From a virus (taxonomy: Duplodnaviria; Heunggongvirae; Uroviricota; Caudoviricetes), in IMG/VR virus record IMGVR_UViG_3300009093_000042, positions 1 through 64,000 of that record: DNA of 64,000 nt; one strand, written 5' to 3'. Under the pieces are notes generated by a model. The model saw only the letters and a program-made list of their open reading frames with translations, did not search any database and was not told where the DNA came from. Below are positions 12,961-58,542 of this stretch, piece by piece; position 1 is the stretch's first letter, and each line of letters starts with the position of its first letter. Both the position numbers and the translations under genes were made by a program.

Positions 12961-12995
12961 GTGAAAAATGTAAACAATTTATTGTTGGTGTCAAT
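12961..12995 (-). promoter_or_regulatory. sigma70-like promoter with -35 TTGACA
   Basis: Minus strand TTGACA-N16-TACATT-TTTCAC-ATG. The core is AAATTGTTTACATTTTTCAC. Confidence 0.55.
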
Positions 12996-13000
12996 GCCTA

Positions 13001-13786
13001 TCAATCACGTTCAGCTCTTTCGTGATCATCCATCGCCCGATCCACCACGTAGCCCATCATCTCGTGCTCTTTGTCCATGTCCGCCTGGATGGTGTTGCGC
13101 AGGTGCTCGCGAAACTCCAGCGGGTTCATCGGGAGTTTGAGCTGCATCACCACGCTGATCGGTAGCAGCCGGGTGATCTCCCGGTGATACGACATCAGAT
13201 TGCTGTATTTTCGGTCGAGCCACTTGTCATAATGACGGATCGGCCAGAGTGCTTGCTCAGCTTCACGCCGCGATTTGAAAAAGTCTGCCAGCCAGAAAAG
13301 GATGCCATCTGAACCTTGCTCCATGTCCCAGTAGTAGAGAATTCCCCACGCGTGCGACCGTGGATTGTACGCCGGTTCGACGAACTCACAGCTTCCCCGG
13401 CTGCCATAATCCGGCTCCTGGCGCGCATACTCCTGGCAGGCGAGGCAGGTCTGGTGATAGCTGCGAGAGCCGAAATAGGCATCCATTTTCCTGATGCCGC
13501 AGCACATGCAGATGGCATCCAGTTCCAGGGGCTTTTTGGCCGCGTGAAAGAGGGCCAGGCGCAGGCACTGCTGATCCACCCAGTGCTCGTGCTCACGAAT
13601 GTCAGCTTCCACTAGCGGCTCGTAAGCCTTCAGCTTTTCCAAGGCACTCGCCTTCGTAATGACGCCCGAAGTCACGTCGCTGCGGATTTTATCCCAGTCG
13701 GTGGCGATGGGTTCGCGGTCAAAAAAGATGTCGGCCCTGATCTTATTCTCATCCAGCAGTTGAATATCAGTAGTCATCTTCGACAC
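13001..13786 (-). CDS. hypothetical protein (261 aa), Cys-containing
   Basis: Long ORF. Confidence 0.55.
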   Translation of the reverse strand: MSKMTTDIQLLDENKIRADIFFDREPIATDWDKIRSDVTSGVITKASALEKLKAYEPLVEADIREHEHWVDQQCLRLALFHAAKKPLELDAICMCCGIRKMDAYFGSRSYHQTCLACQEYARQEPDYGSRGSCEFVEPAYNPRSHAWGILYYWDMEQGSDGILFWLADFFKSRREAEQALWPIRHYDKWLDRKYSNLMSYHREITRLLPISVVMQLKLPMNPLEFREHLRNTIQADMDKEHEMMGYVVDRAMDDHERAERD

Positions 13787-15638
13787 CTTTCCATTCGACG
13801 AACGTGAAATTTTTCTTCTCCATGAAAGCCTTCAGCACGGCTTTATAGTTGACCATGAGCGGGACCGCCCACTGGTACTTCGACTTCCAATCCCGGTCGT
13901 CCAGAATCTCCTCCGACAGCGACGGCGGGAGCGGCATTCGCATGAAGTCTGAGTTTTTCAACACGAGCTTGATCGGCTCCTTTCGGCGCTGGCGGCTTCC
14001 CCAATCTGCTCCTGCGGCGCGGCGCTTCATCCAGGGGTAATAATTCACGACCGGCTTGCCGTCCTCGATGCTGAGCACTTCGAAGATGATGGGCTTTGAA
14101 TCCTTGTAGGTCGTACCGTTGCTGAAGGACGTAGGACCGGCGACCCATTCGTCCACGTAGGCCACGATCCAGTCTCCCCGGTGCGCTTTGCCATCCATGT
14201 AAGGTTCGATCTTCTTCGAAACGCCGTGCCACGGCAGCGCCTGGCGGTAGTCGTAGATGAGGTTGAAATACTTATCCACGTTCTCCCAGTTGAACAGATC
14301 GGTGCCCCTGGGAATGTTCAGCAGCTCGGTGTTATCGACGATGCCCTGGAGCAGCACAGCGAAAATCATCTGCTTCTTATTCACTTTGGTCAGATAATCT
14401 TGCACGGCCTGCCTGAGCTGTTTGTCCAGCAATTCCGGGTAGGAGGAACTGTCGAGCCACTTTTCAATAGTGGCGAAGCGCTCATGCACGATCTGGCGCG
14501 TGAAGTAAGGCTCCTCCTCTTTCAGTGGGCCATGCTTCAGTTCACCCATCACGTCGTCCTCGGCTTTGTCGCCGATGGTCTTCTCCCGTTTTTCCTTGAT
14601 GGCAAAGGAGCTTTCCCAGACGTGATTCTGGACCACGCGCACGGTACGATCGAACTGTTCCCGATCCGGGAACACCGCGTTTTGGAAGGTAAATTCCACG
14701 TCCACGTGGAATACGTTCTCGCCGTCGCGCACCCAGATCATGTTCTGCATGTTCAACATGTTGTTGTACAGATTCACGAAGGCGTCGCGCCCGTAGTCCT
14801 TGTCCTCTTTGCGAATGCGCGTCGCCAGGATGCAGCGTTCGAAAGGCAGGAATTTCCAAATCCGGCCTGACTTCACGAGCCACTTCTCCAGGGCCTCCAT
14901 GTTTTTGAAATCGAAGTCCTTGAAGTTGGCCAGGAGCGCGATCTCCTCGGACAGGTAAACCCTGTTTTGAAAGACTGCGTACTTGCCGGTGCCTTTGTTG
15001 CCCGAACAAATCTGTGTGCGATGACGCGTGCCGTGAAGGTAAGCGTCCAGGATGCTGAGCTTCTGCTTCATGTCCCGGACTTTTGCGCTGAGGTCCCCGC
15101 TCAGGCGCGACATCTCCCACTTCCGGCGCATCAGGCCCATCTGTTCGGCCTGGATTTCCATCTGCATGTCATGCCTGCGCGCCTGGAAATCCACCAGGCT
15201 CGCGCCCATCGGGCTGAGCACCACGTCGGTCGTCTCGTTCGTATTGGCCGGGGCTGCGATCTGCTTGTGCTCGGGATGAAGGTACTTGTTGATGTCAGTG
15301 ACTTTGATCTCCAGGTGCAGCCCAAAGTCCCGACCGTTTCCATTGTGCAGGCCGCCCTCCGCGTAGTGGCGATTCAGGAGTTTGCGTGTGCGCGCAACGA
15401 CTTCTGGCTCGTCGCTCCAGACCTGGATGACTTCGTAAGCTGAGACACCAGGGAGACTGACGGTGTCCAGGAAGAACTTTCTGCCGACCGGCTCAGCCGG
15501 AAAGGCCATCGCACCGAAAATGATCTTGAGGGCGTCCTCAACATTCTGGGCGGTAGCGTGCCAGTCGCCGTTGCCGTCGCGCTCTTTGTGGGAATTTTCG
15601 TACGGATTGACTCCGATGACGTACAGAAAAGCCTTCAT
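13767..15638 (-). CDS. large hypothetical protein (623 aa)
   Basis: Long uninterrupted ORF. No recognisable catalytic motif by eye. Confidence 0.6.
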   Translation of the reverse strand: MKAFLYVIGVNPYENSHKERDGNGDWHATAQNVEDALKIIFGAMAFPAEPVGRKFFLDTVSLPGVSAYEVIQVWSDEPEVVARTRKLLNRHYAEGGLHNGNGRDFGLHLEIKVTDINKYLHPEHKQIAAPANTNETTDVVLSPMGASLVDFQARRHDMQMEIQAEQMGLMRRKWEMSRLSGDLSAKVRDMKQKLSILDAYLHGTRHRTQICSGNKGTGKYAVFQNRVYLSEEIALLANFKDFDFKNMEALEKWLVKSGRIWKFLPFERCILATRIRKEDKDYGRDAFVNLYNNMLNMQNMIWVRDGENVFHVDVEFTFQNAVFPDREQFDRTVRVVQNHVWESSFAIKEKREKTIGDKAEDDVMGELKHGPLKEEEPYFTRQIVHERFATIEKWLDSSSYPELLDKQLRQAVQDYLTKVNKKQMIFAVLLQGIVDNTELLNIPRGTDLFNWENVDKYFNLIYDYRQALPWHGVSKKIEPYMDGKAHRGDWIVAYVDEWVAGPTSFSNGTTYKDSKPIIFEVLSIEDGKPVVNYYPWMKRRAAGADWGSRQRRKEPIKLVLKNSDFMRMPLPPSLSEEILDDRDWKSKYQWAVPLMVNYKAVLKAFMEKKNFTFVEWKGVEDDY

Positions 15639-16066
15639 TCCTTTTCTCCCTTGATCACCGAGTCATTGAATTCGTTCGTCGTCAGCGCACCTTTGGCAAG
15701 CTGCACCAGGAGCGACTTGCCGCGCTCAATGCCTGCTTCGTGCGACAGTTGGATCGCCTCCTGGATGGCCTTAAAGAGATCGTTGAGCGCCTGGCGTTGT
15801 TCCGGCGTGGCAATGCGGATGGCCGCGTCCAAGCCGCGTGGGTAAAAGGTCCCGTAATCCGGGACGATGGGACTCACGTCACGTTCAGCGTTGGCTGAAA
15901 GCGTGCGCTTATCCACCTGGGGGAACATCAGCTCGATGATGCGGTAGTAGGCCGCCGTCGCTTTCGGGTAAAGCGTGCCGTCGCCAGAGATAAACCTGGG
16001 ACGGAAGTGCGCCTGGGCAACCCAGAAGGAGTTTTCAGGAGCTTTTGGTTTGCGACGAGTGCCCAT
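15635..16066 (-). CDS. hypothetical protein (143 aa)
   Basis: ATGA coupling with the downstream gene. Promoter motif upstream. Confidence 0.5.
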   Translation of the reverse strand: MGTRRKPKAPENSFWVAQAHFRPRFISGDGTLYPKATAAYYRIIELMFPQVDKRTLSANAERDVSPIVPDYGTFYPRGLDAAIRIATPEQRQALNDLFKAIQEAIQLSHEAGIERGKSLLVQLAKGALTTNEFNDSVIKGEKE

Positions 16067-16100: not shown

Positions 16101-16616
16101 TCAATGAAAATATCCGATATTAGAAATTCTCCTGCCGCCTTTCGGGGTGCGCCCGAAACGACTGAGGAATTCGAACTTGATGCTGTCTGACTCTGCCCTG
16201 TCCATCTCTGGCGTGGATCGGCTGCCGAGTGCTTCGAACACGGCGCACTGCGCCTGCATGTCTCGCACTTCGTCCCGGCCATCCACCTGAAATTTATCAG
16301 AAGGTTTCTGCGCGTAGCACTTGGGATCAGAGCAACCGGAGCTGAAGAAGTATTCGAAAGCCACGAGGAACGATGTCGCGCTGAGATCAGTCAGGTTCTC
16401 GACAAATTCCAGGAAGCAGGCTGCGTGCTCCGGGCTGTAATCCTTTTTGATGCCGTCATGGATCATCTCCAGGTGGGTTGGACCGAGGTCGCCGCGCTTG
16501 GGTCCCCGCCCGGCGTAATAGCCAGAGCGCGCCAGCAACCGGCCAGAGCACCAGGCGTCAATGGCTTCGTAAAAGCTGGCCGGTGGATTCGTGGGTTTGG
16601 GTAGTTCTTTTTTCAT
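16101..16616 (-). CDS. hypothetical protein (171 aa)
   Basis: Minus ORF. Confidence 0.5.
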   Translation of the reverse strand: MKKELPKPTNPPASFYEAIDAWCSGRLLARSGYYAGRGPKRGDLGPTHLEMIHDGIKKDYSPEHAACFLEFVENLTDLSATSFLVAFEYFFSSGCSDPKCYAQKPSDKFQVDGRDEVRDMQAQCAVFEALGSRSTPEMDRAESDSIKFEFLSRFGRTPKGGRRISNIGYFH

Positions 16617-16837
16617 TATGGGTATTGGGTGAGGGAGTCCCAGGTCGGCAGGTTATACTGCGCGTCCGCGCTGAGACGTTTGTTTTCTTCTTTCCGCCAC
16701 GCGATTTCATGGTAGTAGCACGCGTGACAAATAATCAGATTGCCGTGGTGCGGATTCTTGCCGAGGGGCAGAACTCGCACTTCGCCGGTCGCGCTTTGGC
16801 AATGAGACCCGTCGCAGTTGGGATTCAGGTTTGCCAT
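16616..16837 (-). CDS. Cys/His-rich zinc-finger-like small protein (trimmed)
   Basis: CDGSHCQ...CHACYYHE pattern. TGAtATG junction with the upstream GHKL gene. Confidence 0.4.
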   Translation of the reverse strand: MANLNPNCDGSHCQSATGEVRVLPLGKNPHHGNLIICHACYYHEIAWRKEENKRLSADAQYNLPTWDSLTQYP

Positions 16838-16838
16838 A

Positions 16839-18299
16839 TCACAGCTTTCGGTCGCGGATCGCCTGGGCCAGTTTGGAACCAATCATGGTCAGTGCCTTGT
16901 AGTACTCCTCGCTCAGGTGATTCTCGCTGTACTCGTGGCCGAACTCGTGGATGATCAGGTCATCAATTTCCTGCTGGTTCGTCTCACGATTGAACCAGTC
17001 GTAGCCGAGCCGACCGACGTTGAACACCAGGGTCCCGCTCGGGCCGTAAGTGGCACCGTAGGGCCAGGTTGCTTCCGCCGCAAAGACCACGCTGATACTT
17101 TTGCCGAGCACGATCCGGGCGAACGCTTTGGCGTAAGTTTCCACGTGCTGCATCCCGACCGTTACTTCCTTGACCAGCTTCAATGGCGCGCCGTCCGGGC
17201 TGTAGGGCTTGGGTGAAGGCGTGACCTGACCGGCAGGCAGCATCGCGCCCACGCTCTTGACGTTACTCCAGGCGGCCTTGCTGAGCTGATTGCCGGTGAC
17301 CACCGTGAAGCCAGCGGCAGCGGCACGGCTGTTGGATTCGATGTCGGACGGATCGTAGATGACGCGTTTCTCACCGAAGCGCTGAGTCATGCACGCCTCG
17401 ACCGCTGCGGGTGCGATGTCCGGTGAAGTCAAAGCTTCAGCGGCCCAGGACGTGTTGGCATCCTCGCTGTCGATGATTGTTGACATGTTATTCACAGCGG
17501 CTACTGCGAGCTGTTTTCGGAAGGAAGGCAGGACTTCTTCACGGTCCATCGTGAGCGGAACTTTCTGACCCACGTTGAAGATGTATTTGCCGTCGATCTC
17601 GCACACGGGTATCCCCATCTCGTAGATGGCAGCCGGGCAGCCTTCGCCGGGAACAGCGCGGTAAACTTCCACATTCGTCAGCCGGGTGGTTTTGACCATG
17701 TTGCCTTCACCGTCAGCGACCTCAGTGGCCAGGGCAGCTTTGAATCGCGTCATGCCCGGCGCACTGACGAGGGCTTTGCCGTTGATAGTCGTGATGATGG
17801 TCTTTTCGCCAACCGGAGGAATCAGCCGAGCGCAGGCATTTACAATCTGGTCGATCTCGTCCTTTTTCACGCGAATCATCATTGAGATCACCGAACCCTT
17901 TTCCCGCTTCAATCCTGGCGACCGTTGCCTGCCGTGTTTGGTAAAATTGACGGTGCCGGTGGTTGTGGAGACGCAGGCTTCTGAAGCGAGGGCCAGCACC
18001 AGCTTCTCGCCGAGGTTGAACCGACCGCGCTTTTCCGGGTTGGCCTTTTTCTTGGACTCAGCGAACAAGGTGTAGGCGTGCGTGAGGTCAGAGAATCCAT
18101 CCGGCGCATCGTCCGTCACACGCAGCATCGCCTGGCCAGGATACCCCGGCACCGACTCAAGCGTGACATCGACCTGAGTGACGCCTTCTTCGTCCCAGGC
18201 ATTCTGGATCAGTTCAAAGATAATGAACTCCTTGCCCTTGCGCTGGAGGATTTTCGCCAGCCCGTCTTTGTCTATTTCAAACCATGATGAAGTTTTCAT
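16839..18299 (-). CDS. GHKL (Bergerat-fold) ATPase fused to a C-terminal HExxH zincin-like motif
   Basis: N-box FELIQNAWDE, G1-like VTDDAPDGF, G2-like RGRFNLGEK, then IIHEFGHEYSENH near the C-terminus. ORF-track start 18317 is TTG inside the promoter. First ATG at 18299 sits 7 nt from a TACAAT -10 box. Confidence 0.6.
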   Translation of the reverse strand: MKTSSWFEIDKDGLAKILQRKGKEFIIFELIQNAWDEEGVTQVDVTLESVPGYPGQAMLRVTDDAPDGFSDLTHAYTLFAESKKKANPEKRGRFNLGEKLVLALASEACVSTTTGTVNFTKHGRQRSPGLKREKGSVISMMIRVKKDEIDQIVNACARLIPPVGEKTIITTINGKALVSAPGMTRFKAALATEVADGEGNMVKTTRLTNVEVYRAVPGEGCPAAIYEMGIPVCEIDGKYIFNVGQKVPLTMDREEVLPSFRKQLAVAAVNNMSTIIDSEDANTSWAAEALTSPDIAPAAVEACMTQRFGEKRVIYDPSDIESNSRAAAAGFTVVTGNQLSKAAWSNVKSVGAMLPAGQVTPSPKPYSPDGAPLKLVKEVTVGMQHVETYAKAFARIVLGKSISVVFAAEATWPYGATYGPSGTLVFNVGRLGYDWFNRETNQQEIDDLIIHEFGHEYSENHLSEEYYKALTMIGSKLAQAIRDRKL

Positions 18300-18349
18300 A
18301 CTCAGGATTGTAAACAATTACAGTCCAATGTCAATACACAAAGTGTATT
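18300..18349 (-). promoter_or_regulatory. promoter with -35 TTGACA, -10 TACAAT, near-leaderless start, plus upstream ATACAC-AAA-GTGTAT palindrome
   Basis: Minus strand CACTTTGTGTATTGACA-N16-TACAAT-CCTGAGT-ATG. Perfect 6-bp inverted repeat at 18335-18349. Confidence 0.55.
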
Positions 18350-20622: not shown

Positions 20623-20675
20623 GCCAGAAATGTAAACGAAATAGAATTGTTGTCAATACCCAAAGTGTAAATAGT
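20623..20675 (-). promoter_or_regulatory. promoter with -35 TTGACA, -10 TACATT, near-leaderless start
   Basis: Minus strand CACTTTGGGTATTGACA-N16-TACATT-TCTGGC-ATG. Shares GTATTGACA upstream context with the promoter at 18300-18349. Confidence 0.55.
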
Positions 20676-20793: not shown

Positions 20794-20988
20794 ATGAAAT
20801 TTCGCTTAATAGCAGCACCGGTTGAGCGAGGGGACCTAAACAGGATTTTCTCTCTGTTCGAAGTCGCGCAATTCCTCGAAATAGCTGTTGAAGACCTGGC
20901 CCTGCGCGGAAAACTCTCGGGAAACGTCAGCCTGGATGGCTATACTTTCGAGGTTGTTCGCAGCGTGCAGGGTTCAAGTTTCAAATAG
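20794..20988 (+). CDS. hypothetical small protein (plus strand)
   Basis: GGAG sits 5 nt upstream of the ATG. Preceded by a strong GC hairpin. Convergent with the HerA-like gene. Confidence 0.25.
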   Translation: MKFRLIAAPVERGDLNRIFSLFEVAQFLEIAVEDLALRGKLSGNVSLDGYTFEVVRSVQGSSFK

Positions 20989-22734
20989 CGTTGCGCTGGC
21001 TCGGATTCTCAGCTCGCGATCCTGTTCCATCAGGTCGGGAGCGCGCAGGGCTGTTAGCGCGTTTCCAAACGTGCTGGAGTTCACGCTGTATCCCGTCGCG
21101 TCTGAAATCTCCTGGCGCGTGGCAAACTCCGGGAAGCGCGTCAGCAGGTAACTGAAAATCTTTCCCGCTGCGCCGCTCAGCTTATTCACCCAGAGATTTC
21201 TCAGAGCTTCACCTTTTGGCAACGGTTCAAAGTTTTTCAACAGGGCGCGAGCCTCGGGTATTGCAGTCAGCGTGTCGCCGCTGCGGATGATCGCGTTGTT
21301 TTTGGAAAGCTCGGTCAGCCCGTTGCCGAACGTGCTTGAAGTCACGCTGTAGCCGGATAGAAGCGCGGCCTGGCTGCGGGTCCGCCCTTCGGGATAACTG
21401 AGCAGCACGGTCAGAATCGCTGACGCACACTTGGAAAGTCCACCCGAGGATGGATCATGCACCGGCGATGAAAAATCGTGCCGAGTGGCGACAACTGGAG
21501 CCGGGATCGCCTTGGGTGCTACCGGTGTCGCAACCGCCATACTCGTCTTCTGGATCACGATCAATTTGTTTACAATATCGGTGCGTAGCGCTACCGCCTG
21601 ATTGGCCAGCTCAGAGAAGTTCACCACCGTCTTGCTGAAAGTAGTGCAGGCTTCCTCGATTCGCTTCAGAGTTTTTTCCTGCTCGGGCGTTAGCACGGGA
21701 ACTTCGACCTTTTCGATTCGCGTGTCCACGACCGTCACCGGCCTGGGCGCGACAGCGGCCTGTTCCGCTTTTACCAGCTTTTGTTTCAAAACAGCCACTT
21801 GTTGTTTCAAATGGGCCGGATCATTCTCGTTGGCGCGCTCAATCGTTTCACGAATCTCATTTCCCAGGCGCACGAGATCGACCTTGGCCAGCTTTTGCGG
21901 GATGATGACTTTTTCACCTGCCTTGGGCGTGGCTGATGAGTTGAAGGTCCGGCGCTGCCGGATGGTGATCCGTTGAAAGATGCGCAGCCAGCCGGGCGAC
22001 CATATCCAGCCCTCGCCGGTGTGAAGCGATGCCAGGGACTGCATCATGATGTCGCGCTGTTCCTTCGTGCCGTTGCGCTTCACCCAATCGTCGATGGCGT
22101 CCTGGTCCTGGGGCGAGTTGAGCTGAAGTACGATCAACAGTTCGGTCTGAGTGAAGACATTCTTATTGAGCACAGCCGGGCGCTGCGTGATCAGCGTCGT
22201 GCCAATCCCACGGATGCCTCCCCGGCGCACCAGGGCTTCGAAGGCTCCGAGCATTCGCTGCTGGCCGTCCTGGGGTTTCTGGGGAGCGAAAGAGTCGGCT
22301 TCGTCCACGAACAGGTGCAGCGGATTGCGGTTTTGATTTTTACGCCGGTAGAGGCGTTCGGCAAAGTCAGTGGCGAAGCGATCCTGCTGTGCGTTGCTTT
22401 CGGTCGAGGAGAGGTCGATGACGTAGTAGCCAGGATGGTCAACCACCATGTCGGCGATGACCCGGCCTGCCGTATATTCCAGTGGAACGTCCGCGTGCTC
22501 ACCGCCGATGATCACCACTGGCAAACCTTCGCGCAGACCGTTTGCTGATGAACGCAGGCCCCACCAGGCACCGGTCGGATCGAGCACGGCAAACGGCTGT
22601 GACGCCGCCACCAGCTCCTCGGCGATCACCGATCCTGTGTAGGTCTTACCGACCCGGCGCATGGCCATGATGGAACACGTCTGGGTGACGAAATCCAACG
22701 GCAGCGTCAGTTCCTTTGAGATTTTGAGGCTCAT
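20974..22734 (-). CDS. HerA/FtsK-superfamily P-loop NTPase (DUF87-like) with tandem C-terminal winged-helix-like repeats
   Basis: Walker A MAMRRVGKTY, AVLDPTGAWWGL, Walker B LHLFVDEADSF, and GIRGIGTTLITQRP. Two C-terminal repeats GYSV(T/N)SSTFGN(G/A)LT. Confidence 0.6.
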   Translation of the reverse strand: MSLKISKELTLPLDFVTQTCSIMAMRRVGKTYTGSVIAEELVAASQPFAVLDPTGAWWGLRSSANGLREGLPVVIIGGEHADVPLEYTAGRVIADMVVDHPGYYVIDLSSTESNAQQDRFATDFAERLYRRKNQNRNPLHLFVDEADSFAPQKPQDGQQRMLGAFEALVRRGGIRGIGTTLITQRPAVLNKNVFTQTELLIVLQLNSPQDQDAIDDWVKRNGTKEQRDIMMQSLASLHTGEGWIWSPGWLRIFQRITIRQRRTFNSSATPKAGEKVIIPQKLAKVDLVRLGNEIRETIERANENDPAHLKQQVAVLKQKLVKAEQAAVAPRPVTVVDTRIEKVEVPVLTPEQEKTLKRIEEACTTFSKTVVNFSELANQAVALRTDIVNKLIVIQKTSMAVATPVAPKAIPAPVVATRHDFSSPVHDPSSGGLSKCASAILTVLLSYPEGRTRSQAALLSGYSVTSSTFGNGLTELSKNNAIIRSGDTLTAIPEARALLKNFEPLPKGEALRNLWVNKLSGAAGKIFSYLLTRFPEFATRQEISDATGYSVNSSTFGNALTALRAPDLMEQDRELRIRASATLFET

Positions 22735-25127: not shown

Positions 25128-25188
25128 TGAGTGAAAAATGTAAACAATTTTTTGCTTACGTCAACGACGAAGTTCGTTCTTTAAGGAT
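25128..25188. promoter_or_regulatory. divergent intergenic region with a single palindromic motif serving the minus lipoprotein gene and the plus gene 25189..25449
   Basis: GAAAAATGTAAACAATTTTTT. Minus strand reads TTGACG-N16-TACATT-TTTCACTCA-ATG. The plus gene has an AAGGA SD. Confidence 0.5.
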
Positions 25189-46688: not shown

Positions 46689-49600
46689 TCAGTGATATAC
46701 CAAAAATGGATTCGTGACGAAATCGCGCTGGAGGAAGTAAATGTCCCCGCTCGAATAGTCGATGGCGATGGAGCTGATATTCGCTCCCGTCGTGAACTCA
46801 CACACAATGGTTTTTCCGACCGGGTCGATCACCGTGACTTCGCCATTCTGGGCCGCTGCAATGATCAGTCCCGACACCGGGTTGTACTTGACATAAACTT
46901 TGTTGAAGACGTTGGAGACGTTCGTGAACGTGTCCACCACAGCGTAGGTGTTGGGATCGAACGAAACAATCGGGTTCGTTGATCCGTCCACCAGGCAGAA
47001 GTAAACCAGCCCTGTCGCCGGGACATAATCCACTTCAAAGTTCGAGTTGACCAGGAAGCTGTTGTTGTTGAGGGTCAGCGCAGGGAGCGCATAAAACAAC
47101 GTGGAGTTGGTCGGCTTCAGGATCAACTGACCAGGCAATCCGAATACGCCGGGCGTTGTTGCAGCAGAAATGGTCGTGGCAACGTCGTTGGTGATCGTGT
47201 TAGTGTGCGGGTCGATCTCGATGATGTGGATTTTGTGATCGCTGTTATTTCCCGCCACGCCGTATATCTTGTCCTGCGCCGCGCTGTAGTAGTAATTCGT
47301 GAGGAAGAACGAGTTGACTGGTTGACCGATCTCAGTGACCACGTTTCCACTGGTGTCGAATACCAACACACCTGCGGACCCGGTGACGAAGAACGTTTGG
47401 GTCGTCGGTGCAAAGGCGCTTCCATCACCGTCCATGTCCCATTCCACGTCGCACGCTGTTTGGGCGAGGACAGTGTTGGTCGATGAGTCGATGAACGTCA
47501 TGATTCCATCATTGGACCGCGTGACGCCGATGATTCTCACTGCGGCATTACGGCTCATCAGGATTTCGCCGTCAACGTTTCCAGTATTATCGAATTGTGT
47601 CACGAACACCGGACACGTCGGCGTGGGCGGAGCGGGCGAGGAGGAGCATGGACTCATAATGGTTCCGTAGGTTACGAAAGCAGGCAGCGTTCCGTCAGAC
47701 ACGGTGAACGATCCATTGAGGATAATGTCTTCGGTCCGATAGGACGTGGTTGCGGTTAGTTTGTTTGAAAACGGCTGAGGATTGCTCAGCGTGTCGTTGG
47801 AGCTGTAAATCTGTGACTCGTGCTGATAGCCGTAGGCCGTTCCCCAACTGCTCATGGTCGCCATCCAGCCGCCCGGAGTGGTTGGATAATCGGTGCCGGA
47901 GGTACCGAACTTCGTGGTCACGACGGAGCCTGCGCCGACTGTCAAACGATACAGTGACGTGTGGAATCGAGTGAGATTCACTTCGCTGATGAACAACTGG
48001 CGCGCCGTTCCCTTCTGGTTGTCACGGATGGCATTGCTCCAGTCAAACAGCAACAGCCAGGAACTCGGGCTGCCGGGCAGTGTGTGCGGCAGATAGAAAT
48101 CGAACGTGTCGGTCTGGCTGAAGTTCGCGCCGGTCTGGTCTGCACAGAGCTTGCCCTGGAAGACGATGTCGCCAACCGTGATGACCACGTTGAACCCAAC
48201 GAAGCTCGTATCGACTTTGCCGATGTTGCCAGACGTGACGCTCAATCGGTAAAAGCCGGGGAGCATCTGGTTGTTGATCTCGAACGCGATTTGGCCGTTG
48301 TTCTTCAGCGCCACCACTGGAGGCGTCTGGGCCAGGCCGAACGTGTTGGGCTGCACCCACGCGTTCACCGTGTTCGTCCCGGACAGGTCAATCACCGTTT
48401 CCTCATTTGCGTAAAGATAGATCGGCGCTGAGGTCGCGGTGCCGGTGTAGGTGCCTGAGTAAACCACGCCGCTGGTATTGACCGAGAGCTGTTTGTGCAG
48501 CGTTGCATCGCTTAGTTCCACTTCCGCGCCAGTCGGCTGGTACGACCCGTTCAAGCTGAAAATCTTTTCCGTGACGAAGGACACGTTTCCGGCCTCGGTG
48601 TTGGCCAAACTGATCTGCCAGACAAAGCCGTCGTCCCCCTTTCTCCAGATGCGATCTCGGCAGGGGTTGGTGGCTTGCAGGGGATTGGGCCACGGAGAGC
48701 CAGTGCCGGTCGAGGCGAGGGTGCCTGCGATGCCAGAGATGGTGCTGCCACTTTCGATCAGCGTCAGCACAAAGCCTGACGGATTGTCAAAGAGCCAGAC
48801 CTTGTTGACGCCAGGATAGTTTCCCTGCCAGGTGGACACTGCCACCGTCCCGTCCGCCGTGAGGGTGTCCCAGACACTTCCCAGAACTTGTTTTGGAGGC
48901 AGCGTGTTGCCGCCGCCTACGCCGGTTTCTTTGTAGCGTGATTGCGCGTCGTAGCGCGCCAGGTAATCGTAGCGCTGAACCCACGCGAGATTGTCCGTAA
49001 TGATCGAAGTGGGCAGTTGGTCAGGGATCACGTAACCGCTCGGCAGCACTTTGACTGCGTAGTGATCGTACGTGTTGACCGATTGCAACCACGTGGGCCG
49101 GTAAAGGCAGGCGGTTGGGCTTGGATTGTGATAGCGCGCCAGCGTCAATTCGTCCTGGGCTTTCGTCACATTCCACAGGCGCAGGTCCTGGATGTCAAAA
49201 GGCGAATTCTGGCAGCTCACTGTCAGATGGTACGGCGTTTCAAAGTCGATCAAGCTGGTCACTGAGATCGTTTGCACCGTGAGGCTGCCGGTCGAGTTCC
49301 AGTAATAAACCGTGAGCGTTTGAACGCCGTCGAATGACCACGCGAAGTAGCTCCATTTCTGGTCGAACACCTGGAACGCTTTGAGATTCACCGTCCCATC
49401 AGAGTAGGTCAGATAGAAATTCAAACGAGGCGTCGTGATTGCTCCCGAGAGTGTGATCTTCAGCGGGCCGGACAAAAGGATGGTCTGTTCGCTGGTGTAG
49501 CTGTTCAAGCCGCGAATCCAGAAACCACCGGAGAACATTTGGCCGAAGCCACGGGCCACCGGGCTGTTCAATAGCAATCCCGGTTGAGCTGCGAGATAAT

Positions 49601-51989
49601 TGCCGCGAACCGGATCAAACTTACGGTCGCCCGAAGCCAGCCCGTCGATGAAAGCGTTTCCAGCGTAGATCGAGTGATCTTCCACCAGAATGGCGTCGAG
49701 CGGCTGCTCATTGAAAGGATACCAGAGCGCCAGACCGTTGCGGTGATGTTTTCCAAAGAACTTCGGAGCGTCCGCCACCAGAACGCCTTGAACCAATCCG
49801 AAATGGTAAAGCTGCCAGCCCGGCTGCATCACACCGTCGAGACCGCCCTGTAATGTGCCGCTGGACGGACGAGTACCGGCGAGATTCAAAAATGTGCCGC
49901 TGAAGGCGATAGCGCGTTGGCCGGGAACGTAATCGTCCAGACTGCGCTCGGCAGTGACAAAGCGAGGAGGATAAGGTCCAGGTACCACGACCTGCACGTC
50001 GTACTGCGCGCCGGTCTGACTGACGACCGAAGCCGTCTGACCCAACCGAATGGTTTCCAGGTCCGGCACTGCCGGGCTGTAGTCGTTCAGGTCAACCAGC
50101 TCGCCGCCGCCCACCAGGCTGCGTCGCCATGGATACTCGTCCGGCATATCCATGGCTGGATCATCCAGAAAATCTTCCGGGCGCTCCTGATAACCGATCT
50201 GGATGCAGTTGGTTCCCGGATTCGAGCGAACGACTTCGGTCGAAGTCGGTTCGAAGACGACGTTGACGATGGTGCCTGTCTGAACCGTGCCGGGGAATCG
50301 AAGTATCCAGCTCGCGTTGCGATAGTCGAATGTGCCGGAAGCCAGCAGGTCGCTGGTCTTCAGCGTCAGGAAGCCGGAGTTCGTGATCGACTGTTCCTGA
50401 TACATGTCAATCGTCCCGGTCTGGAATTGGACGCTGTACGGAGGCGTCGGAAAGTCCGTGATCGTACCGCTGTAAATCGAAGTGCCGCTGTGGGTGATGA
50501 ACAGTTGATCCTTCTCGCAGAAGGCAGCGTAGCCGACCTGGTCTTCGATGAGATAGCCGACGTTGACTTGGCGCGGCGTACGGGTCGCGGGCCGGACTTC
50601 TTCCATCGCGGCCACCACTTGCGCGCCTGCCGCGCTGAGCGCGTCCTGGTCAAATTGACGGCTGGTCAGGTCGGCCTGCACGCGGGGAGAAACAATCGTC
50701 AGGTTGCCGTTCGTGTTGGTGCGCGTGATCCAATCGGCGGTGATCAGTTCCTGTCTGATGGACCCGGACATCCACGGACGAAACGGAGAAACGGCGGTTG
50801 CGCCGAAGTTCGCCGAGGTCGGGTTGTTCACCAGGTCCTTGTTGGCCGTGGCCACGACCGTTCCGAACTGCTCCAGCGCGTGGTCGAAATCCATCGTCAA
50901 CCCGAGATCGAAATAGCTGGTGCGGTATTTGATTGCCGAGAGCCGGTCGGTGATGGAGATGATGCGCGACGTGCCATTGTCGATGGACGTGAAGTTGATT
51001 TCCAGGCCGTTGAAGCTCGACCCAGACGAGATTGCCTTGAACAGCAGCCCGCTGCCGGGCGGTTCAACTGACGCCTGCTTTTCCGGGCCGCCGCCCACCA
51101 GGATGTAAGGCGCGCCTGCCGGATCGGGATCGGTTGGTGCCGTTCCCACCACGCTGACACTGACAAACGGATTGAACCCGTTCACAATATCGGTGTAAAA
51201 ACGCGTGTCGCTTTGTCCAAAGCGCGCTGAGGCAGTGCCGGTCCAAGTGAAAAAGGGACCGTCGTTCAGTACCCACGGATCGTAAAAGTTGTCGCGGGCC
51301 TGCTTCGGGAAATAGTCAGGAATCGTGGCGAAGTCCTGGTTGTTTCGCGGATCACCGATGTCGTTGGCGATACGCGGGCTGAGTCGCCCCCAAAGCGGAC
51401 TCATTCGCACGTCGTCAAAACCCAGAAGCCTGCCGAGCGTTTCGAAGGATTGCGCCGTGCCTTTGAACTGCAAACGCGGGAACCAGGTCGCCAGGAGACG
51501 GCGCGCATCACTCTGCGCGTTGTCCGGGTCCATCGCGGCTGTCTGGTAAAGCACCGCGCCAACGGTTTCAGCCAAGTAACCCAGGATGTTGGCGTCAACC
51601 AGCCGGAGCATGTCCACTCCGTACGCTGCCGAGATCAGGACGTGGTTTTCGTCAAGCTGGAGCTGGTCGGCAGCCCAGGTGAGAAGTGCTGGATCGTTCG
51701 CAGCCGGAGTATCGCTCTGGAAATCCAGCGAGCGGTTGTAAACTTTTCCCTGCGGCGACTGCACCTGGCAGAGGACCACGTTGTTGACGGGAGTACCGGA
51801 ATTGTCAGTCTCCGGCAGTCCGTTTGCCGTGACCAGAAGTTCGAGCTTGGAGACGTACGATCGCGTGTCGTCGATGCGATCCTGATAGCCGCCAATGACC
51901 GCCTGAATCAACCCTTGTTCATCAAGGTCGATTATGCCTTCGGGCAGAAGGTCATACAGGTAATCCTCAATTAGATTCTGCAAGCTCAC
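46689..51989 (-). CDS. giant virion protein (1766 aa); internal-core or baseplate-fibre candidate
   Basis: Uninterrupted 5.3-kb ORF. Its position before the fibre genes resembles T7 gp16-gp17 order. Confidence 0.65.
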   Translation of the reverse strand: MSLQNLIEDYLYDLLPEGIIDLDEQGLIQAVIGGYQDRIDDTRSYVSKLELLVTANGLPETDNSGTPVNNVVLCQVQSPQGKVYNRSLDFQSDTPAANDPALLTWAADQLQLDENHVLISAAYGVDMLRLVDANILGYLAETVGAVLYQTAAMDPDNAQSDARRLLATWFPRLQFKGTAQSFETLGRLLGFDDVRMSPLWGRLSPRIANDIGDPRNNQDFATIPDYFPKQARDNFYDPWVLNDGPFFTWTGTASARFGQSDTRFYTDIVNGFNPFVSVSVVGTAPTDPDPAGAPYILVGGGPEKQASVEPPGSGLLFKAISSGSSFNGLEINFTSIDNGTSRIISITDRLSAIKYRTSYFDLGLTMDFDHALEQFGTVVATANKDLVNNPTSANFGATAVSPFRPWMSGSIRQELITADWITRTNTNGNLTIVSPRVQADLTSRQFDQDALSAAGAQVVAAMEEVRPATRTPRQVNVGYLIEDQVGYAAFCEKDQLFITHSGTSIYSGTITDFPTPPYSVQFQTGTIDMYQEQSITNSGFLTLKTSDLLASGTFDYRNASWILRFPGTVQTGTIVNVVFEPTSTEVVRSNPGTNCIQIGYQERPEDFLDDPAMDMPDEYPWRRSLVGGGELVDLNDYSPAVPDLETIRLGQTASVVSQTGAQYDVQVVVPGPYPPRFVTAERSLDDYVPGQRAIAFSGTFLNLAGTRPSSGTLQGGLDGVMQPGWQLYHFGLVQGVLVADAPKFFGKHHRNGLALWYPFNEQPLDAILVEDHSIYAGNAFIDGLASGDRKFDPVRGNYLAAQPGLLLNSPVARGFGQMFSGGFWIRGLNSYTSEQTILLSGPLKITLSGAITTPRLNFYLTYSDGTVNLKAFQVFDQKWSYFAWSFDGVQTLTVYYWNSTGSLTVQTISVTSLIDFETPYHLTVSCQNSPFDIQDLRLWNVTKAQDELTLARYHNPSPTACLYRPTWLQSVNTYDHYAVKVLPSGYVIPDQLPTSIITDNLAWVQRYDYLARYDAQSRYKETGVGGGNTLPPKQVLGSVWDTLTADGTVAVSTWQGNYPGVNKVWLFDNPSGFVLTLIESGSTISGIAGTLASTGTGSPWPNPLQATNPCRDRIWRKGDDGFVWQISLANTEAGNVSFVTEKIFSLNGSYQPTGAEVELSDATLHKQLSVNTSGVVYSGTYTGTATSAPIYLYANEETVIDLSGTNTVNAWVQPNTFGLAQTPPVVALKNNGQIAFEINNQMLPGFYRLSVTSGNIGKVDTSFVGFNVVITVGDIVFQGKLCADQTGANFSQTDTFDFYLPHTLPGSPSSWLLLFDWSNAIRDNQKGTARQLFISEVNLTRFHTSLYRLTVGAGSVVTTKFGTSGTDYPTTPGGWMATMSSWGTAYGYQHESQIYSSNDTLSNPQPFSNKLTATTSYRTEDIILNGSFTVSDGTLPAFVTYGTIMSPCSSSPAPPTPTCPVFVTQFDNTGNVDGEILMSRNAAVRIIGVTRSNDGIMTFIDSSTNTVLAQTACDVEWDMDGDGSAFAPTTQTFFVTGSAGVLVFDTSGNVVTEIGQPVNSFFLTNYYYSAAQDKIYGVAGNNSDHKIHIIEIDPHTNTITNDVATTISAATTPGVFGLPGQLILKPTNSTLFYALPALTLNNNSFLVNSNFEVDYVPATGLVYFCLVDGSTNPIVSFDPNTYAVVDTFTNVSNVFNKVYVKYNPVSGLIIAAAQNGEVTVIDPVGKTIVCEFTTGANISSIAIDYSSGDIYFLQRDFVTNPFLVYH

Positions 51990-56730: not shown

Positions 56731-58542
56731 TCAGCCCAACTTTTCGTAAACTTTTGCTTGCGAAATACTGTCCGGTCCGAGCAGTGGATGGACGAAGGTG
56801 TAACCCCGGATGTTGAATAGTTTGTCGAAGACCCGTTTGCATCCGCGCCGGAGAATTTCGTGCTGGTTGTCGAAGAACCAGGTGATCTCCGCTTCATTGT
56901 TTACTTTTTTCTTACGAATGAAGCGACCGATAATCTGGTTGGCGCGCTCCCAGTCGCCAACGTAGTCAGCGATCACGCCGCCTCGAATTTCATTGATGGA
57001 AACGCCTTCCTGCACGAGTGGCGAGATCAGCACGCCGCCCGGTGTCTGCCGGAACCAATCGAAGCATTGGTCGCGCTGGCGTGGGCTGTGTTCACCGAGC
57101 AGTACCCGGACGTTGTGTTTGCCCACGGCGGCTTCAATCAGGCCCTGCAAGATGTAGATGTGGAGCGTGCGCGTGCAGACCACCAGCGTCGGATATTTCT
57201 TTTCGACGCTGTAGTAGCGCGTCCAATCCGTGATCATGTCATTGCGCTCGCCGAAGCGAATGAGCGCCCGGTCGTTGACTCGTTCCAGCAGGCAGTAAGT
57301 GGACTCGATTTCGTAAACAGATTCGTCACCGGGAAATTGGAACGTGTGAAAGCCGTCAATCGTCACCGGCACTTCCACGTCTTTCCAGCGCGCCGATTTC
57401 ACGGTCTCGGTGGCACCGTCTTCAGTCACCCTCTCACCTTCGTCCACGGTGTCTTCCAACACGCGTTTTTTCTGCGTCTTGATGTCGCCGTTTTTATCCA
57501 GCTCGTAAACCGGTCCAATGTAGGTTCCCTTTTTCCATTCGTTGCCGACGAGGGCGTAGCCGGGTGTGCCGGGAATGGCCTGGTGCGGCAGCGTCGAGAA
57601 GCGATTCCTCCAGGCCGGATTCTCGACAATGTAAATCTTGGGTTTGGCCGACCTGCCGATGTCGATGTAAACGCCGACCGGGACCGTGTAGCGGATCGGA
57701 CCGAGCAGCCCCTGGATGCGCGCCATGCTGTCAGGATCGTTGTCGCGCCGGGTGTCCGAGGCTCCCAGGCGAAAGAAGCACGGCAGCTTCATTAGGACCG
57801 CAGAGCTGGTCTTGGAGCAGGCGTGATGAGATTCGTCGTAGAGCACGCCGATAAACGAGCTGAACCAGTCTGTGCTCGCCAGTTTCGCGAAATGCTTCCA
57901 CAGCATCGCGGCGGTCGAGATGACCATGTCCTTTCCGGTGTTGTCCCCTTTACTTCCGCCGTACTGCGTGATGTCCCAGTCGGGCAGGAACTTCGTGATT
58001 TCCTGGTAAGCCTGGCGCACCAGGCGCTCTCGGTCGGCGATGTAGAGAAAGCGCGCTTCGTTGCCGTACCGGCGTTTGATCATGGCGGCAGCCGCTGCGA
58101 ACATGGCGGTTTTGCCACCGTTCACGGCGATTTTATTCACGCCCATGCCGCTGCGCAGCCAGAAGGCGATGGACTCGCGCTGATACTCATCGAGCGGGAA
58201 GTCAGCCTGGATGAGGTCATCAGGCAGGTCATCAGCGACGAGGCTGGCAAAAGGAGACTTAAGGCACTCTCTGGTATTGACCAGGAAGTTGAGGTTGCGC
58301 GCCGTCTGGATGACTTTGTCTTTGTGGCCGCGCAGGCAGTCGGCGCGCCCGATGTCGAGAATGCGGATCGGAGAAATGTAGCCGTCCCATCCTTCAGCTC
58401 CGTCCGTTAAGTCGTAAGCTTTGTAGCGAGGGGAATGGAAATAGCCCTTCGGATGATACCGAAGTTTGAAATGAATGGCCTTGATTTCGTTGTCTTCGCC
58501 GCTTAAGCGAAGGCGCGTTGGCCCCTCGACAATGTTTATCAT
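56731..58542 (-). CDS. SF2 DExH-box helicase
   Basis: Motif I AVNGGKTAMF, motif II VLYDESHH, motif III-like LGASDT. Promoter motif upstream. Confidence 0.6.
   Translation of the reverse strand: MINIVEGPTRLRLSGEDNEIKAIHFKLRYHPKGYFHSPRYKAYDLTDGAEGWDGYISPIRILDIGRADCLRGHKDKVIQTARNLNFLVNTRECLKSPFASLVADDLPDDLIQADFPLDEYQRESIAFWLRSGMGVNKIAVNGGKTAMFAAAAAMIKRRYGNEARFLYIADRERLVRQAYQEITKFLPDWDITQYGGSKGDNTGKDMVISTAAMLWKHFAKLASTDWFSSFIGVLYDESHHACSKTSSAVLMKLPCFFRLGASDTRRDNDPDSMARIQGLLGPIRYTVPVGVYIDIGRSAKPKIYIVENPAWRNRFSTLPHQAIPGTPGYALVGNEWKKGTYIGPVYELDKNGDIKTQKKRVLEDTVDEGERVTEDGATETVKSARWKDVEVPVTIDGFHTFQFPGDESVYEIESTYCLLERVNDRALIRFGERNDMITDWTRYYSVEKKYPTLVVCTRTLHIYILQGLIEAAVGKHNVRVLLGEHSPRQRDQCFDWFRQTPGGVLISPLVQEGVSINEIRGGVIADYVGDWERANQIIGRFIRKKKVNNEAEITWFFDNQHEILRRGCKRVFDKLFNIRGYTFVHPLLGPDSISQAKVYEKLG

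Follow-up and report, generated by a model that had tools for sequence, protein, structure and literature searches.

A widespread fusion of a GHKL ATPase and a zincin protease domain in phages, plasmids and integrated elements

The window analysed here, a 64,000-nt stretch of viral DNA, encodes a protein in which a GHKL ATPase is fused to a zincin-type protease domain (GHKL-zincin). Both domains belong to well-known superfamilies, and their fusion is new to Pfam, NCBIfam and the literature searched; no family in either database covers it, and that literature yielded no description of it. The original prediction, of a GHKL ATPase from the MORC/Hsp90/MutL group joined to a zincin, is borne out by Foldseek matches and residue conservation. 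Our preferred explanation, held with about even confidence, is that GHKL-zincin is a self-sufficient enzyme on a single polypeptide, in which a GHKL ATPase of Hsp90/sacsin type and the accompanying transducer are followed by a small acidic domain and a minimal Wss1/SprT-like protease, and which would cleave a host or DNA-associated protein early.

The three ORFs predicted here lie on the minus strand, which the prediction had not stated, with their coordinates unchanged. The features of the locus are as follows:

18307..18334 (-), near-consensus sigma-70-type promoter (TTGACA-16 nt-TACAAT, 11/12)
16839..18299 (-), GHKL-zincin gene, 486 aa plus stop; first in its transcription unit
17868..18299 (-), GHKL (Bergerat) ATP-binding domain of sacsin/Hsp90 type, residues 1-144
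18189..18215 (-), N-box ELIQNAWDE, residues 29-37
17475..17867 (-), beta-rich transducer (middle) domain, residues 145-275
17553..17567 (-), Q245-K246-V-P-L motif in the transducer domain
17175..17474 (-), small acidic alpha/beta middle domain, residues 276-375
16842..17174 (-), minimal zincin domain, residues 376-486
16917..16949 (-), HEFGHEYSENH, residues 451-461
16616..16837 (-), zinc-finger gene, encoding a 73-aa Cys/His-rich, putative small zinc-binding protein; probably translationally coupled
16101..16616 (-), 171-aa ORFan whose start overlaps the zinc-finger stop; no domain detected
13001..16066 (-), remainder of the GHKL-zincin transcription unit, reaching the next promoter copy at 12994
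15635..16066 (-), orf143, same transcription unit
13767..15638 (-), orf623, same transcription unit
13001..13777 (-), orf258, same transcription unit

We took the ATG at 18299 as the start of the GHKL-zincin gene because the N-termini of its homologues agree with it and because the alternative start, a TTG at 18317, falls within the promoter. The -10 hexamer of this promoter ends just 7 nt from the ATG, and the mRNA would therefore be leaderless or nearly so. Four copies of the extended motif of this promoter (TTGACA N11 TYGTTTACAWT) are present in the window against an expected 0.27, each of them on the coding strand and 6-9 nt 5' of a start codon. Judged on the promoter sequence only, the near-consensus, host-type match and the almost absent leader suggest that the gene may be expressed early by host RNA polymerase. 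The stop codon of the GHKL-zincin gene and the start of the zinc-finger gene are separated by 1 nt (...TGAtATG...), and the stop of the latter overlaps the start of the 171-aa gene (...TAATG...); these junctions support the predicted translational coupling. Pfam, PHROGs, NCBIfam and PADLOC gave almost no matches for the three ORFs or for seven neighbouring ones. No known domains were found in orf143, orf623 or orf258, and orf623 has neither a PDB nor a family match. As the original prediction held, the GHKL-zincin gene falls outside the standard replication and structural genes of phages.

The Bergerat N-box of the original prediction is confirmed by an alignment of 265 homologues (38-73% identical), in which E29, N33 and D36 (ExxxNxxD, with the catalytic Glu and the Mg-binding Asn) are kept in 265/265. 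Equally invariant are D63 and G68 of a variant G1 box (D63-D-A-P-D-G68), G92 and G97 of the G2/lid (G92-R-F-N-L-G97, within KRGRFNLGEK) and K99. As these ATP-site residues, like those of the zincin, are invariant or nearly so across the 265 homologues, the motifs are not a product of chance. The protein thus shows the three features of the GHKL superfamily that we looked for: the N-box, the G1 and G2 boxes and the Bergerat alpha/beta sandwich. Its AF2 model (pLDDT 88.8) matches TRAP1, GRP94, MutL, MORC2/3 and the Topo II ATPase with a Foldseek probability of 1.00. The top matches are to Hsp90/TRAP1 (TRAP1 E 4e-12), with weaker ones to the modules of MutL, MORC and type II topoisomerases (E 5e-7 to 1e-5).

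Sequence searches lead in the same direction as the structure. The G2/lid is of the same type as sacsin GRFGIG, and two sacsin-like motifs are present (ELIQNAxD and S-x-KK-x-DP-x-K-x-GRF-x-x-G). NCBIfam P_loop_sacsin matches at 24.4 bits (E 2.9e-5), below its curated cut-off of 50 bits, while Pfam HATPase_c_3 matches 30/37 family members and SACS 25/37 (best E 4.5e-6); a PDB match to sacsin in the profile search is weak (E 0.05). In both sequence and structure, the ATPase part is closest to sacsin and Hsp90. The original prediction had named a topoisomerase or gyrase B fragment as the identity that would speak against it. We examined and rejected this: no Toprim, DNA_gyraseB or topoisomerase match was found in Pfam, NCBIfam or PHROGs, and the Topo II ATPase is a distant fold match (E 2e-6) behind Hsp90, MutL and MORC.

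Like Hsp90 (HtpG, TRAP1, GRP94) and the SRR-SACS of sacsin, GHKL-zincin follows the Bergerat ATP site with a beta-rich middle (transducer) domain. The aligned residues of the model cover the N+M domains of Hsp90/TRAP1, the MutL N-terminal fragment and the MORC ATPase modules. The transducer has an invariant E227-x-G-x-P and the QKVPL motif, in which Q245 is found in 264/265 homologues and K/R246 in 263/265; this motif is the putative gamma-phosphate sensor. Three homologues carry an intein-like insert exactly before QKVPL, a call based on junction residues (C...SHN, then C) and a LAGLIDADG-like motif; Pfam at E<0.01 did not flag these inserts. Inteins typically occupy functionally critical motifs and are typical of DNA-metabolism proteins. 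The acidic middle domain that follows has an invariant W285, a D316-P-S-D319-P-E321 loop and a PAGQVTPSP motif. The protein as a whole is mildly acidic (pI about 6), its protease and middle domains being acidic and its GHKL domain alone basic, and it therefore has no obvious DNA-binding surface, an observation that weighs against our preferred explanation.

The C-terminal domain consists of a helix, a three-stranded sheet, the active-site helix with HEFGH, the third ligand H461 and a C-terminal helix, and the protein terminates about 25 residues past H461. It is a zincin: a mixed beta-sheet precedes the active-site helix that bears HExxH, and there is a third zinc ligand. E452, H455 and H461 are conserved in all 265 homologues and H451 in 264/265; in the alignment, the predicted catalytic motifs of both domains of the fusion are intact. 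The original prediction was right about the HEFGHEYSENH motif and the zincin, but wrong in calling it gluzincin-like with a downstream Glu. The candidate glutamates are poorly kept (E464 in 83/265 and E465 in 84/265, about 31%) and H461, five residues past HExxH, is invariant, so that the predicted third ligand is this histidine and the motif is HExxHx5H, with Wss1/metzincin spacing. Membership of the metzincins was rejected as well: the spacing agrees, but S or a variable residue occupies the Gly position and no conserved Met follows. The sole metzincin sequence match is a weak one to myroilysin (E 0.014-0.2), which, together with artefactual matches to designed TIM barrels, was all that came out of searching PDB sequences with a profile of the C-terminal part. 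Structurally, the protease domain is closest to Wss1, and Spartan is matched too. Wss1/WLM sequence scores are low (Pfam WLM in 2/37 members at E about 0.1; PDB Wss1 E 1.1).

The family is large and uniform. It comprises more than 2,900 clusters at 90% identity and about 1,200 (1,219) at 50% identity, the whole architecture being kept, with lengths of 470-520 aa. Its carriers are phages (contigs of 4-485 kb), megaplasmids and integrated elements, from many phyla; we found homologues on 232 IMG/VR contigs, on a 485-kb uncultured phage and on 130 genome or MAG contigs, also from many phyla. No cultured phage was found to carry the gene; orthologues on plasmids include those of Methylibium petroleiphilum PM1 and Bosea. 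Some members adjoin paralogous GHKL genes, which have no BLASTP-level similarity to the query. Mean column identity across phyla is 55%. This is unusually high for counter-defence proteins, which usually evolve fast, and tells against the host-takeover or counter-defence side of our preferred explanation; such conservation is easier to reconcile with a housekeeping-type enzyme whose substrate is universal.

To see what accompanies these genes, we surveyed 159 loci (+/-6 kb, BLASTP threshold 1e-4, crude ORF calling). No conserved partner gene was found within +/-6 kb; the best neighbour cluster was present at 14/159 loci, orf623-like proteins occurred at 8/159, and the associations are minority patterns of 5-9% of loci or fewer. 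The Methylibium RPME01 copy lies near orphan DNA methyltransferases, Gp37/Gp68, dUTPase, DUF4326 and NADAR, surroundings that are typical of establishment or anti-defence regions. Recurrent near divergent members, and likewise typical of such regions, are SNF2 helicases (at 8 loci, in several cases directly downstream), DUF932, recombinases and AAA+ ATPases. A sliding clamp, RNase HII, an HhH-GPD glycosylase, dUTPase, RNR and a Toprim-like protein are also found among the neighbours. On Picosynechococcus plasmids, a distant homologue that shares the architecture (26% identity) is flanked by genes for DisA_N/DAC and a 1,378-aa CHAT protease, beside a toxin-antitoxin pair. This is a cellular conflict-type locus, and it could point to defence rather than counter-defence.

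From this context, we infer a counter-defence or host-takeover role. GHKL-zincin would have both ATPase and protease activity, the one coupled to the other. ATP binding would close the lid and bring about N-terminal dimerisation, as in Hsp90, MutL, MORC and type II topoisomerases, with the QK loop of the transducer sensing the gamma-phosphate. The movement of the clamp may then capture a client protein, possibly a DNA-bound one, or unmask the protease, and proteolysis would thereby be gated by the ATPase cycle. The most likely target would be a conserved host or DNA-associated protein, cut while the invading element establishes itself.

Several known systems resemble parts of this protein. Identity to Hsp90 is only about 12%, and GHKL-zincin has no Pfam HSP90 match, no clear C-terminal dimerisation domain and no MEEVD tail; it is hence not a member of the Hsp90 family, which is defined by sequence match and by an N-M-C dimer with a C-terminal dimerisation domain. 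We know of no Hsp90 or sacsin that carries a zinc protease, as GHKL-zincin does. With MutL, MORC and type II topoisomerases it shares a two-domain ATPase module (GHKL plus S5-fold transducer) and a conserved basic residue on the transducer loop, QK here and a QTK loop in GyrB, but it lacks the MutL C-terminal endonuclease, the MORC coiled-coil or CW, and Toprim or DNA-gate domains. FtsH and Lon (AAA+) also combine ATPase and protease on one polypeptide, and FtsH is likewise an HExxH zinc protease; GHKL-zincin differs in having a GHKL clamp rather than a ring translocase, with no sign of hexamers or substrate threading. It has no significant sequence similarity to Wss1/WLM or SprT/Spartan and lacks SUMO/ubiquitin- or DNA-binding modules and the Zn-binding subdomain of Spartan, having a fused ATPase instead.

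Among mobile-element proteins, ArdC and the ArdC-like MPTases of polyvalent proteins also join an N-terminal targeting or binding module to a C-terminal Spartan-like metallopeptidase, and are set among orphan methyltransferases and other establishment genes. ArdC combines a DNA-binding domain with the metalloprotease and has an anti-restriction role (PMC7213743), and cleavage of host proteins has been proposed for phage SprT/ArdC-like peptidases (PMC7824862). The N-terminal part of ArdC is, however, an ssDNA-binding fold and not an ATPase, and its protease is a gluzincin, Glu being the third ligand; GHKL-zincin gave no match to ArdC-N. T4 rIIA-type proteins are GHKL ATPases from phages, too; their C-terminal part is variable and not an ATPase (PMC7824862), and they are believed to play a role in conflict between phage and host or phage and prophage. 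Structural matches to them in BFVD (E 1e-7 to 1e-5) are confined to the GHKL region (TM about 0.35), there is no PHROG or Pfam rIIA match, and rIIA proteins are 700-900 aa long and lack an HExxH domain.

The resemblance to Wss1 and Spartan raises another explanation, which we consider unlikely. The GHKL part could be an ATP-operated DNA clamp that places a Wss1/SPRTN-like protease on the DNA of the element, where it would clear away proteins that are covalently trapped or bind tightly, for example topoisomerase adducts, restriction or CRISPR complexes, or nucleoid proteins. The enzyme would then serve genome maintenance and not be a dedicated anti-defence factor. The structural matches of the protease domain and the identical HExxHx5H agree with this, as do the inteins, the nearby SNF2 helicases and DNA-metabolism genes, and an N+M module that MutL and MORC, both DNA-clamp ATPases, have in common with it; the high conservation from phylum to phylum is in keeping with a universal substrate. 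However, no DNA-binding domain or basic surface is recognisable, the nearest ATPase relatives are the chaperones sacsin and Hsp90 rather than MutL or MORC, and non-structural phage genes mostly adjoin DNA-metabolism genes anyway.

A distinctly unlikely explanation is that the gene is a single-gene module for defence or inter-element competition (superinfection exclusion or abortive infection), in which the GHKL part senses an invader and the protease is the effector. The Picosynechococcus locus speaks for it, as does a Rhodovastum copy with a SIR2-HerA defence pair and an integrase at a distance of about 3 kb, and many defence systems travel on mobile elements. PADLOC gave no significant match to known anti-phage defence-system models; weak matches to TmtA, the sacsin-like ATPase of Tiamat, could be counted in favour, but they are marginal (E 0.005-0.008, 12 bits) and involve the GHKL motifs only. 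The family is also abundant in large, apparently lytic phage genomes, its conservation is far above that usual for defence sensors, and within the phage/plasmid clade it is not consistently found in defence islands.

It is very unlikely that GHKL-zincin acts on the element's own proteins as an Hsp90-like chaperone-protease, serving quality control, maturation or processing in the assembly of very large virions. Hsp90/TRAP1 are the top structural matches and Hsp90-like proteins are encoded by giant viruses and some phages; lineage-specific zincins of jumbo phages have also been given a proposed role in maturation (PMC7824862). Yet the family is also found on megaplasmids and on small viral contigs (30-60 kb) with unrelated structural modules, no conserved substrate gene lies nearby, and the gene in the window sits among uncharacterised non-structural genes under an early-type promoter.

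Least credible, and in our view highly improbable, is the three-component counter-defence cassette of GHKL-protease, zinc-finger and 171-aa proteins put forward in the original prediction: these are adjacent same-strand genes with a shared promoter and coupled or overlapping stop and start codons, but against the more than 2,900 clusters of GHKL-zincin, the zinc-finger and 171-aa families, both clade-restricted, number 17 and 6 proteins. A zinc-finger gene 3' of the GHKL-zincin gene occurs only in the window's contig and in one 69%-identical relative, which keeps this order but has, at the 171-aa position, a 175-aa protein with no detectable similarity to the 171-aa ORF. In other phages, zinc-finger homologues adjoin other genes, in the absence of a GHKL-zincin gene. 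Neighbour clustering agrees, as neither small gene recurs across the 159 loci, bar one weak upstream match (L120). The Cys/His zinc finger itself was predicted correctly in that C8, C37 and C40 are kept; its second ligand position, however, varies among the 17 homologues (Cys or His, shifted). The two small genes are probably co-transcribed, clade-specific ORFans and not parts of a machine. A false lead is thus removed, and they need no joint study with GHKL-zincin.

To our knowledge, all characterised ATP-dependent proteases run on AAA+ motors. We tentatively raise the possibility, itself doubtful, of a new principle of ATP-dependent proteolysis, in which a GHKL dimerisation clamp rather than an AAA+ ring captures a client and gates a Wss1-like protease, and infection begins with the destruction of one universally conserved protein, of the host or bound to DNA. 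It would be contained in one 55-kDa polypeptide and be used by phages, plasmids and integrated elements across many bacterial, and possibly archaeal, phyla. If true, ATP would be coupled to proteolysis differently here, by a GHKL-gated metalloprotease. Given the unusual conservation of the family and its wide spread, with phages of 30-485 kb among its carriers, the target is probably something very general, and its identity could reveal a common bacterial vulnerability or a common obstacle to incoming DNA.

The three ORFs of the original prediction exist and lie on the minus strand, as do nearly all long ORFs of the window. They encode the GHKL-zincin (a GHKL ATPase with a C-terminal zincin), a 73-aa zinc-finger protein (16616..16837) and a 171-aa protein (16101..16616). 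Since the ORFs, motifs and stop/start junctions are borne out, that description of the sequence was correct: the GHKL-zincin stop and the 73-aa ATG lie 1 nt apart (TGAtATG), and the stop codon of the 73-aa ORF shares bases with the start codon of the 171-aa ORF (TAATG).

GHKL-zincin gene and motifs
18299→16839, minus strand: GHKL-zincin ORF, 486 aa, start at ATG 18299
residues 29-37, minus strand: N-box ELIQNAWDE
residues 451-461, minus strand: zinc motif HEFGHEYSENH

We chose ATG 18299 as the start because the N-termini of homologues (MKxxWF) correspond to it, whereas a longer TTG-initiated version would begin within the promoter. The protein had no significant assignment in Pfam, PHROG, NCBIfam or PADLOC; the NCBIfam sacsin ATP-binding-like domain matched below threshold (2.9e-5, 24 bits, cut-off 50), and PADLOC TmtA marginally.

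Relatives of the GHKL-zincin form more than 2,900 clusters at 90% identity. When 1.84 billion representatives were searched exhaustively with a profile, 1,219 clusters matched at E<=1e-30, a number that rose to 2,371 at E<=1e-3. Nearly all members are 470-520 aa long and alignable end to end, making the fusion itself the conserved unit. Among 265 homologues 38-73% identical to the window protein, E29, N33, D36, D63, G68, G92, G97, K99, E227, G229, P231, E452, H455 and H461 are 100% conserved, H451 and Q245 are each kept in 264, and position 246 is K/R in 263, while D316, D319 and E321 are kept in ~99%. The ATP site, transducer loop and zinc site are intact in every member, and the architecture is fixed. 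Three homologues (P0208, P0266 and P0280; 751-761 aa) carry intein-like insertions of ~270 aa directly before the invariant QKVPL transducer motif. Their first residue is Cys, another Cys comes right after their terminal ...SHN, and they contain a LAGLIDADG-like AAFDGEG motif, with no Pfam match at E<0.01.

The zinc site reads HExxHx5H with His as the third ligand, given that H461 is invariant and the following Glu residues (E464, E465) are kept in only ~31% of the homologues. The motif had been called gluzincin-like; it is a zincin, but not a gluzincin. Metzincin membership was also rejected, as the conserved Gly and the Met-turn are both absent. The AlphaFold2 model of the full-length protein (pLDDT 88.8) matched the N and M domains of TRAP1/Hsp90 best in Foldseek (E 4e-12), followed by GRP94, HtpG, MutL, MORC2/3 and Topo II ATPase modules, in agreement with the predicted GHKL ATPase of MORC, HSP90 or MutL type. 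By sequence, the ATP site is nearest to sacsin (ELIQNAxD, S-x-KK-x-DP-x-K-x-GRF). The protein can be ruled out as a fragment of gyrase or a topoisomerase, with Hsp90 and sacsin matching best and Topo II ATPase further down. Residues 145-275 form a beta-rich transducer with an invariant QK(V/I)P loop, whose place we take to correspond to that of the loop which senses the gamma-phosphate in GyrB or MutL.

The protein resembles a hybrid, with an ATPase as in Hsp90/sacsin and a protease as in Wss1/SprT. In logic it is like ArdC, a mobile-element protein made up of a binding module and a Spartan-like metallopeptidase (PMC7213743), and like phage rIIA, a GHKL protein whose C-terminal domain is variable (PMC7824862). 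It falls outside Hsp90, GyrB/Topo II, gluzincins, metzincins, rIIA, ArdC and the PADLOC defence proteins; it may or may not belong to the sacsin and WLM families. We found no description of the fusion in the literature searched. This fusion of two known domain types is real, well conserved, widespread and uncharacterised.

The window's contig is metagenomic and 245 kb long; this size, a tail-fibre-like gene and a terminase-like ATPase identify it as a huge phage.

Other features of the window
20974..22734, minus strand: HerA/FtsK-like, terminase-like ATPase, 586 aa (PHROG 'terminase large subunit' and PADLOC/NCBIfam HerA models)
52010..54598, minus strand: 862-aa protein; resembles RNA ligase in one region (PHROG 755) and has a HELVH motif elsewhere
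56731..58542: helicase
62565..63935: tail-fibre-like ORF

The HerA/FtsK-like ATPase extends far at its C-terminus and probably serves in packaging, though it is atypical. Among ten proteins encoded around the GHKL-zincin gene, it alone received a significant assignment from Pfam, PHROG, NCBIfam or PADLOC. The 1,766-aa ORF (46689..51989) adjoining the 862-aa protein gene had no matches at all, 22 of the 30 window ORFs submitted to PHROGs had none there, and no tRNA genes were found in the window. Its source is a very poorly charted huge-phage lineage.

Elsewhere, the GHKL-zincin occurs in one deposited phage record (uncultured, 485 kb), on 232 IMG/VR contigs (4 to 461 kb among the 80 matches listed), on three large plasmids (Methylibium, Rhodovastum and Bosea) and on 130 contigs of GTDB genomes or MAGs. 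The latter span Verrucomicrobiota, Planctomycetota, Acidobacteriota, Chloroflexota, Pseudomonadota and Actinomycetota, and several are archaeal-binned. The protein is carried by mobile elements. When every ORF up to 6 kb either side of the gene was included in a clustering across 159 loci, no neighbour family occurred in more than 14, so the GHKL-zincin has no obligatory partner. Minority associations are seen repeatedly in members that have diverged to 33-50% mutual identity.

Neighbour families within ±6 kb (number of the 159 loci)
Serine recombinases: 14
SNF2 helicases: 8, several immediately downstream
Integrases: 8
orf623-like proteins: 8 (window 13767..15638, minus strand; L001 11033..14332, L073, L141/L142 3532..5679, L149, L161)
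First other GHKL family: 7 (L099 7601..9058, L102, L103, L106, L108 7765..9210, L140, L028)
Second other GHKL family, likewise ending in HExxH: 5 (L105 4067..5383, L135, L152, L038, L128)
AAA+ ATPases: 5 + 5
DUF932: 5
Toprim-like protein: 5 (L099 4688..5653, L106, L108, L118 4356..5321)

The two other GHKL families (~480 aa, N-box ALREFISNAIDR; ~440 aa, ELVQNAVDA and C-terminal HEVAH...H) adjoin the GHKL-zincin, show no BLASTP similarity to it and may be tandem paralogues or partners. In five loci, the gene just upstream encodes a protein of ~320 aa that has no match in Pfam but carries GDHDPSG, a Toprim-like motif; the arrangement recalls topoisomerase VI A/B-type pairing. The orf623-like proteins share a central region (~residues 180-330) and vary in position and strand; orf623 itself (623 aa, in the same operon as the GHKL-zincin) has no known domain. 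On Methylibium plasmid RPME01, the orf623-like ORF was called here at 1,099 aa (annotated at 1,066 aa), and the GHKL-zincin is surrounded by two DNA methyltransferases, Gp37/Gp68, dUTPase, DUF4326, NADAR and DUF1064. Such gene sets are of a type found in mobile-element establishment or anti-defence regions (PMC11541004; PMC5512222).

Directly upstream of the window's GHKL-zincin gene is a promoter-like TTGACA-16 nt-TACAAT (18307..18334, minus strand; 11/12 matches), whose -10 hexamer ends 7 nt ahead of the ATG. Its position suggests that the gene heads a six-gene unit (18299→13001). An extended motif, TTGACA N11 TYGTTTACAWT (fuller form ACACTTTG.G.ATTGACA N11 TYGTTTACAWT), has four copies in the window against 0.27 expected:

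12967..12994, minus strand
18307..18334, minus strand
20629..20656, minus strand
25137..25164, minus strand

Every copy is on the coding strand and ends 6-9 nt ahead of a start codon. This spacing implies that the phage has transcription units with no leader or almost none. Judging from these consensus matches, host RNA polymerase probably transcribes the six-gene unit into an mRNA of that kind.

ATP-driven N-terminal dimerisation is the common mechanism of GHKL enzymes with this transducer; in the GHKL-zincin, it would control client access to the C-terminal protease. The most likely role, to which we give about an even chance, is that of a protease gated by ATP that works early in establishment and has a host or DNA-associated protein as its target. 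In the closest rival, the GHKL module would serve as a DNA clamp and the protein would clear away DNA-bound or crosslinked proteins in the manner of Wss1/SPRTN. This reading fits the family's high conservation, the inteins in its homologues, the match to Wss1 and the presence of SNF2 and DNA-metabolism genes nearby. However, the protein is acidic (pI ~6) and its ATPase affinities are of chaperone type, and we consider this rival unlikely.

A role in defence or exclusion seems more doubtful still. It is favoured by a distant homologue on Picosynechococcus plasmids (519 aa, 26% identical) with the same GHKL...HExxHx5H architecture and the zinc motif HEAAHAMNMHH. On pAQ6 of Picosynechococcus sp. 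PCC 7002 (L174 5400..11871), and also on PCC 7117 and PCC 7003 plasmids, this gene is flanked by one gene for a DisA_N/DAC nucleotide-cyclase domain and another for a 1,378-aa CHAT protease, and a DUF1778/GNAT toxin-antitoxin pair comes next. Possibly the locus is a cellular conflict system with the same ATPase-zincin protein at its core.

Two readings rank below these: processing of the phage's own proteins, which is improbable, and the proposed counter-defence cassette of GHKL-zincin, zinc-finger and 171-aa proteins as one functional unit, which is scarcely credible. The 73-aa protein is plausibly a small zinc-binding protein, as C8, C37 and C40 are conserved while its second ligand varies. 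A search of 5.8 billion clusters gave 17 homologues of it, and those in two other phages adjoin unrelated genes with no GHKL-zincin gene nearby. The 171-aa protein has six homologues, and a weak homologue lies upstream of the GHKL-zincin gene in another locus (L120). A 69%-identical GHKL-zincin relative keeps the local gene order, but the 175-aa protein in the 171-aa position has no detectable similarity to the 171-aa protein. Such small families, other contexts and unrelated replacement indicate synteny within one phage clade rather than a functional module, and the proposed operon-level reading is best abandoned. Should the protease prove to be gated by ATP, the GHKL-zincin would be a non-AAA+ ATP-dependent protease of mobile elements across many phyla.
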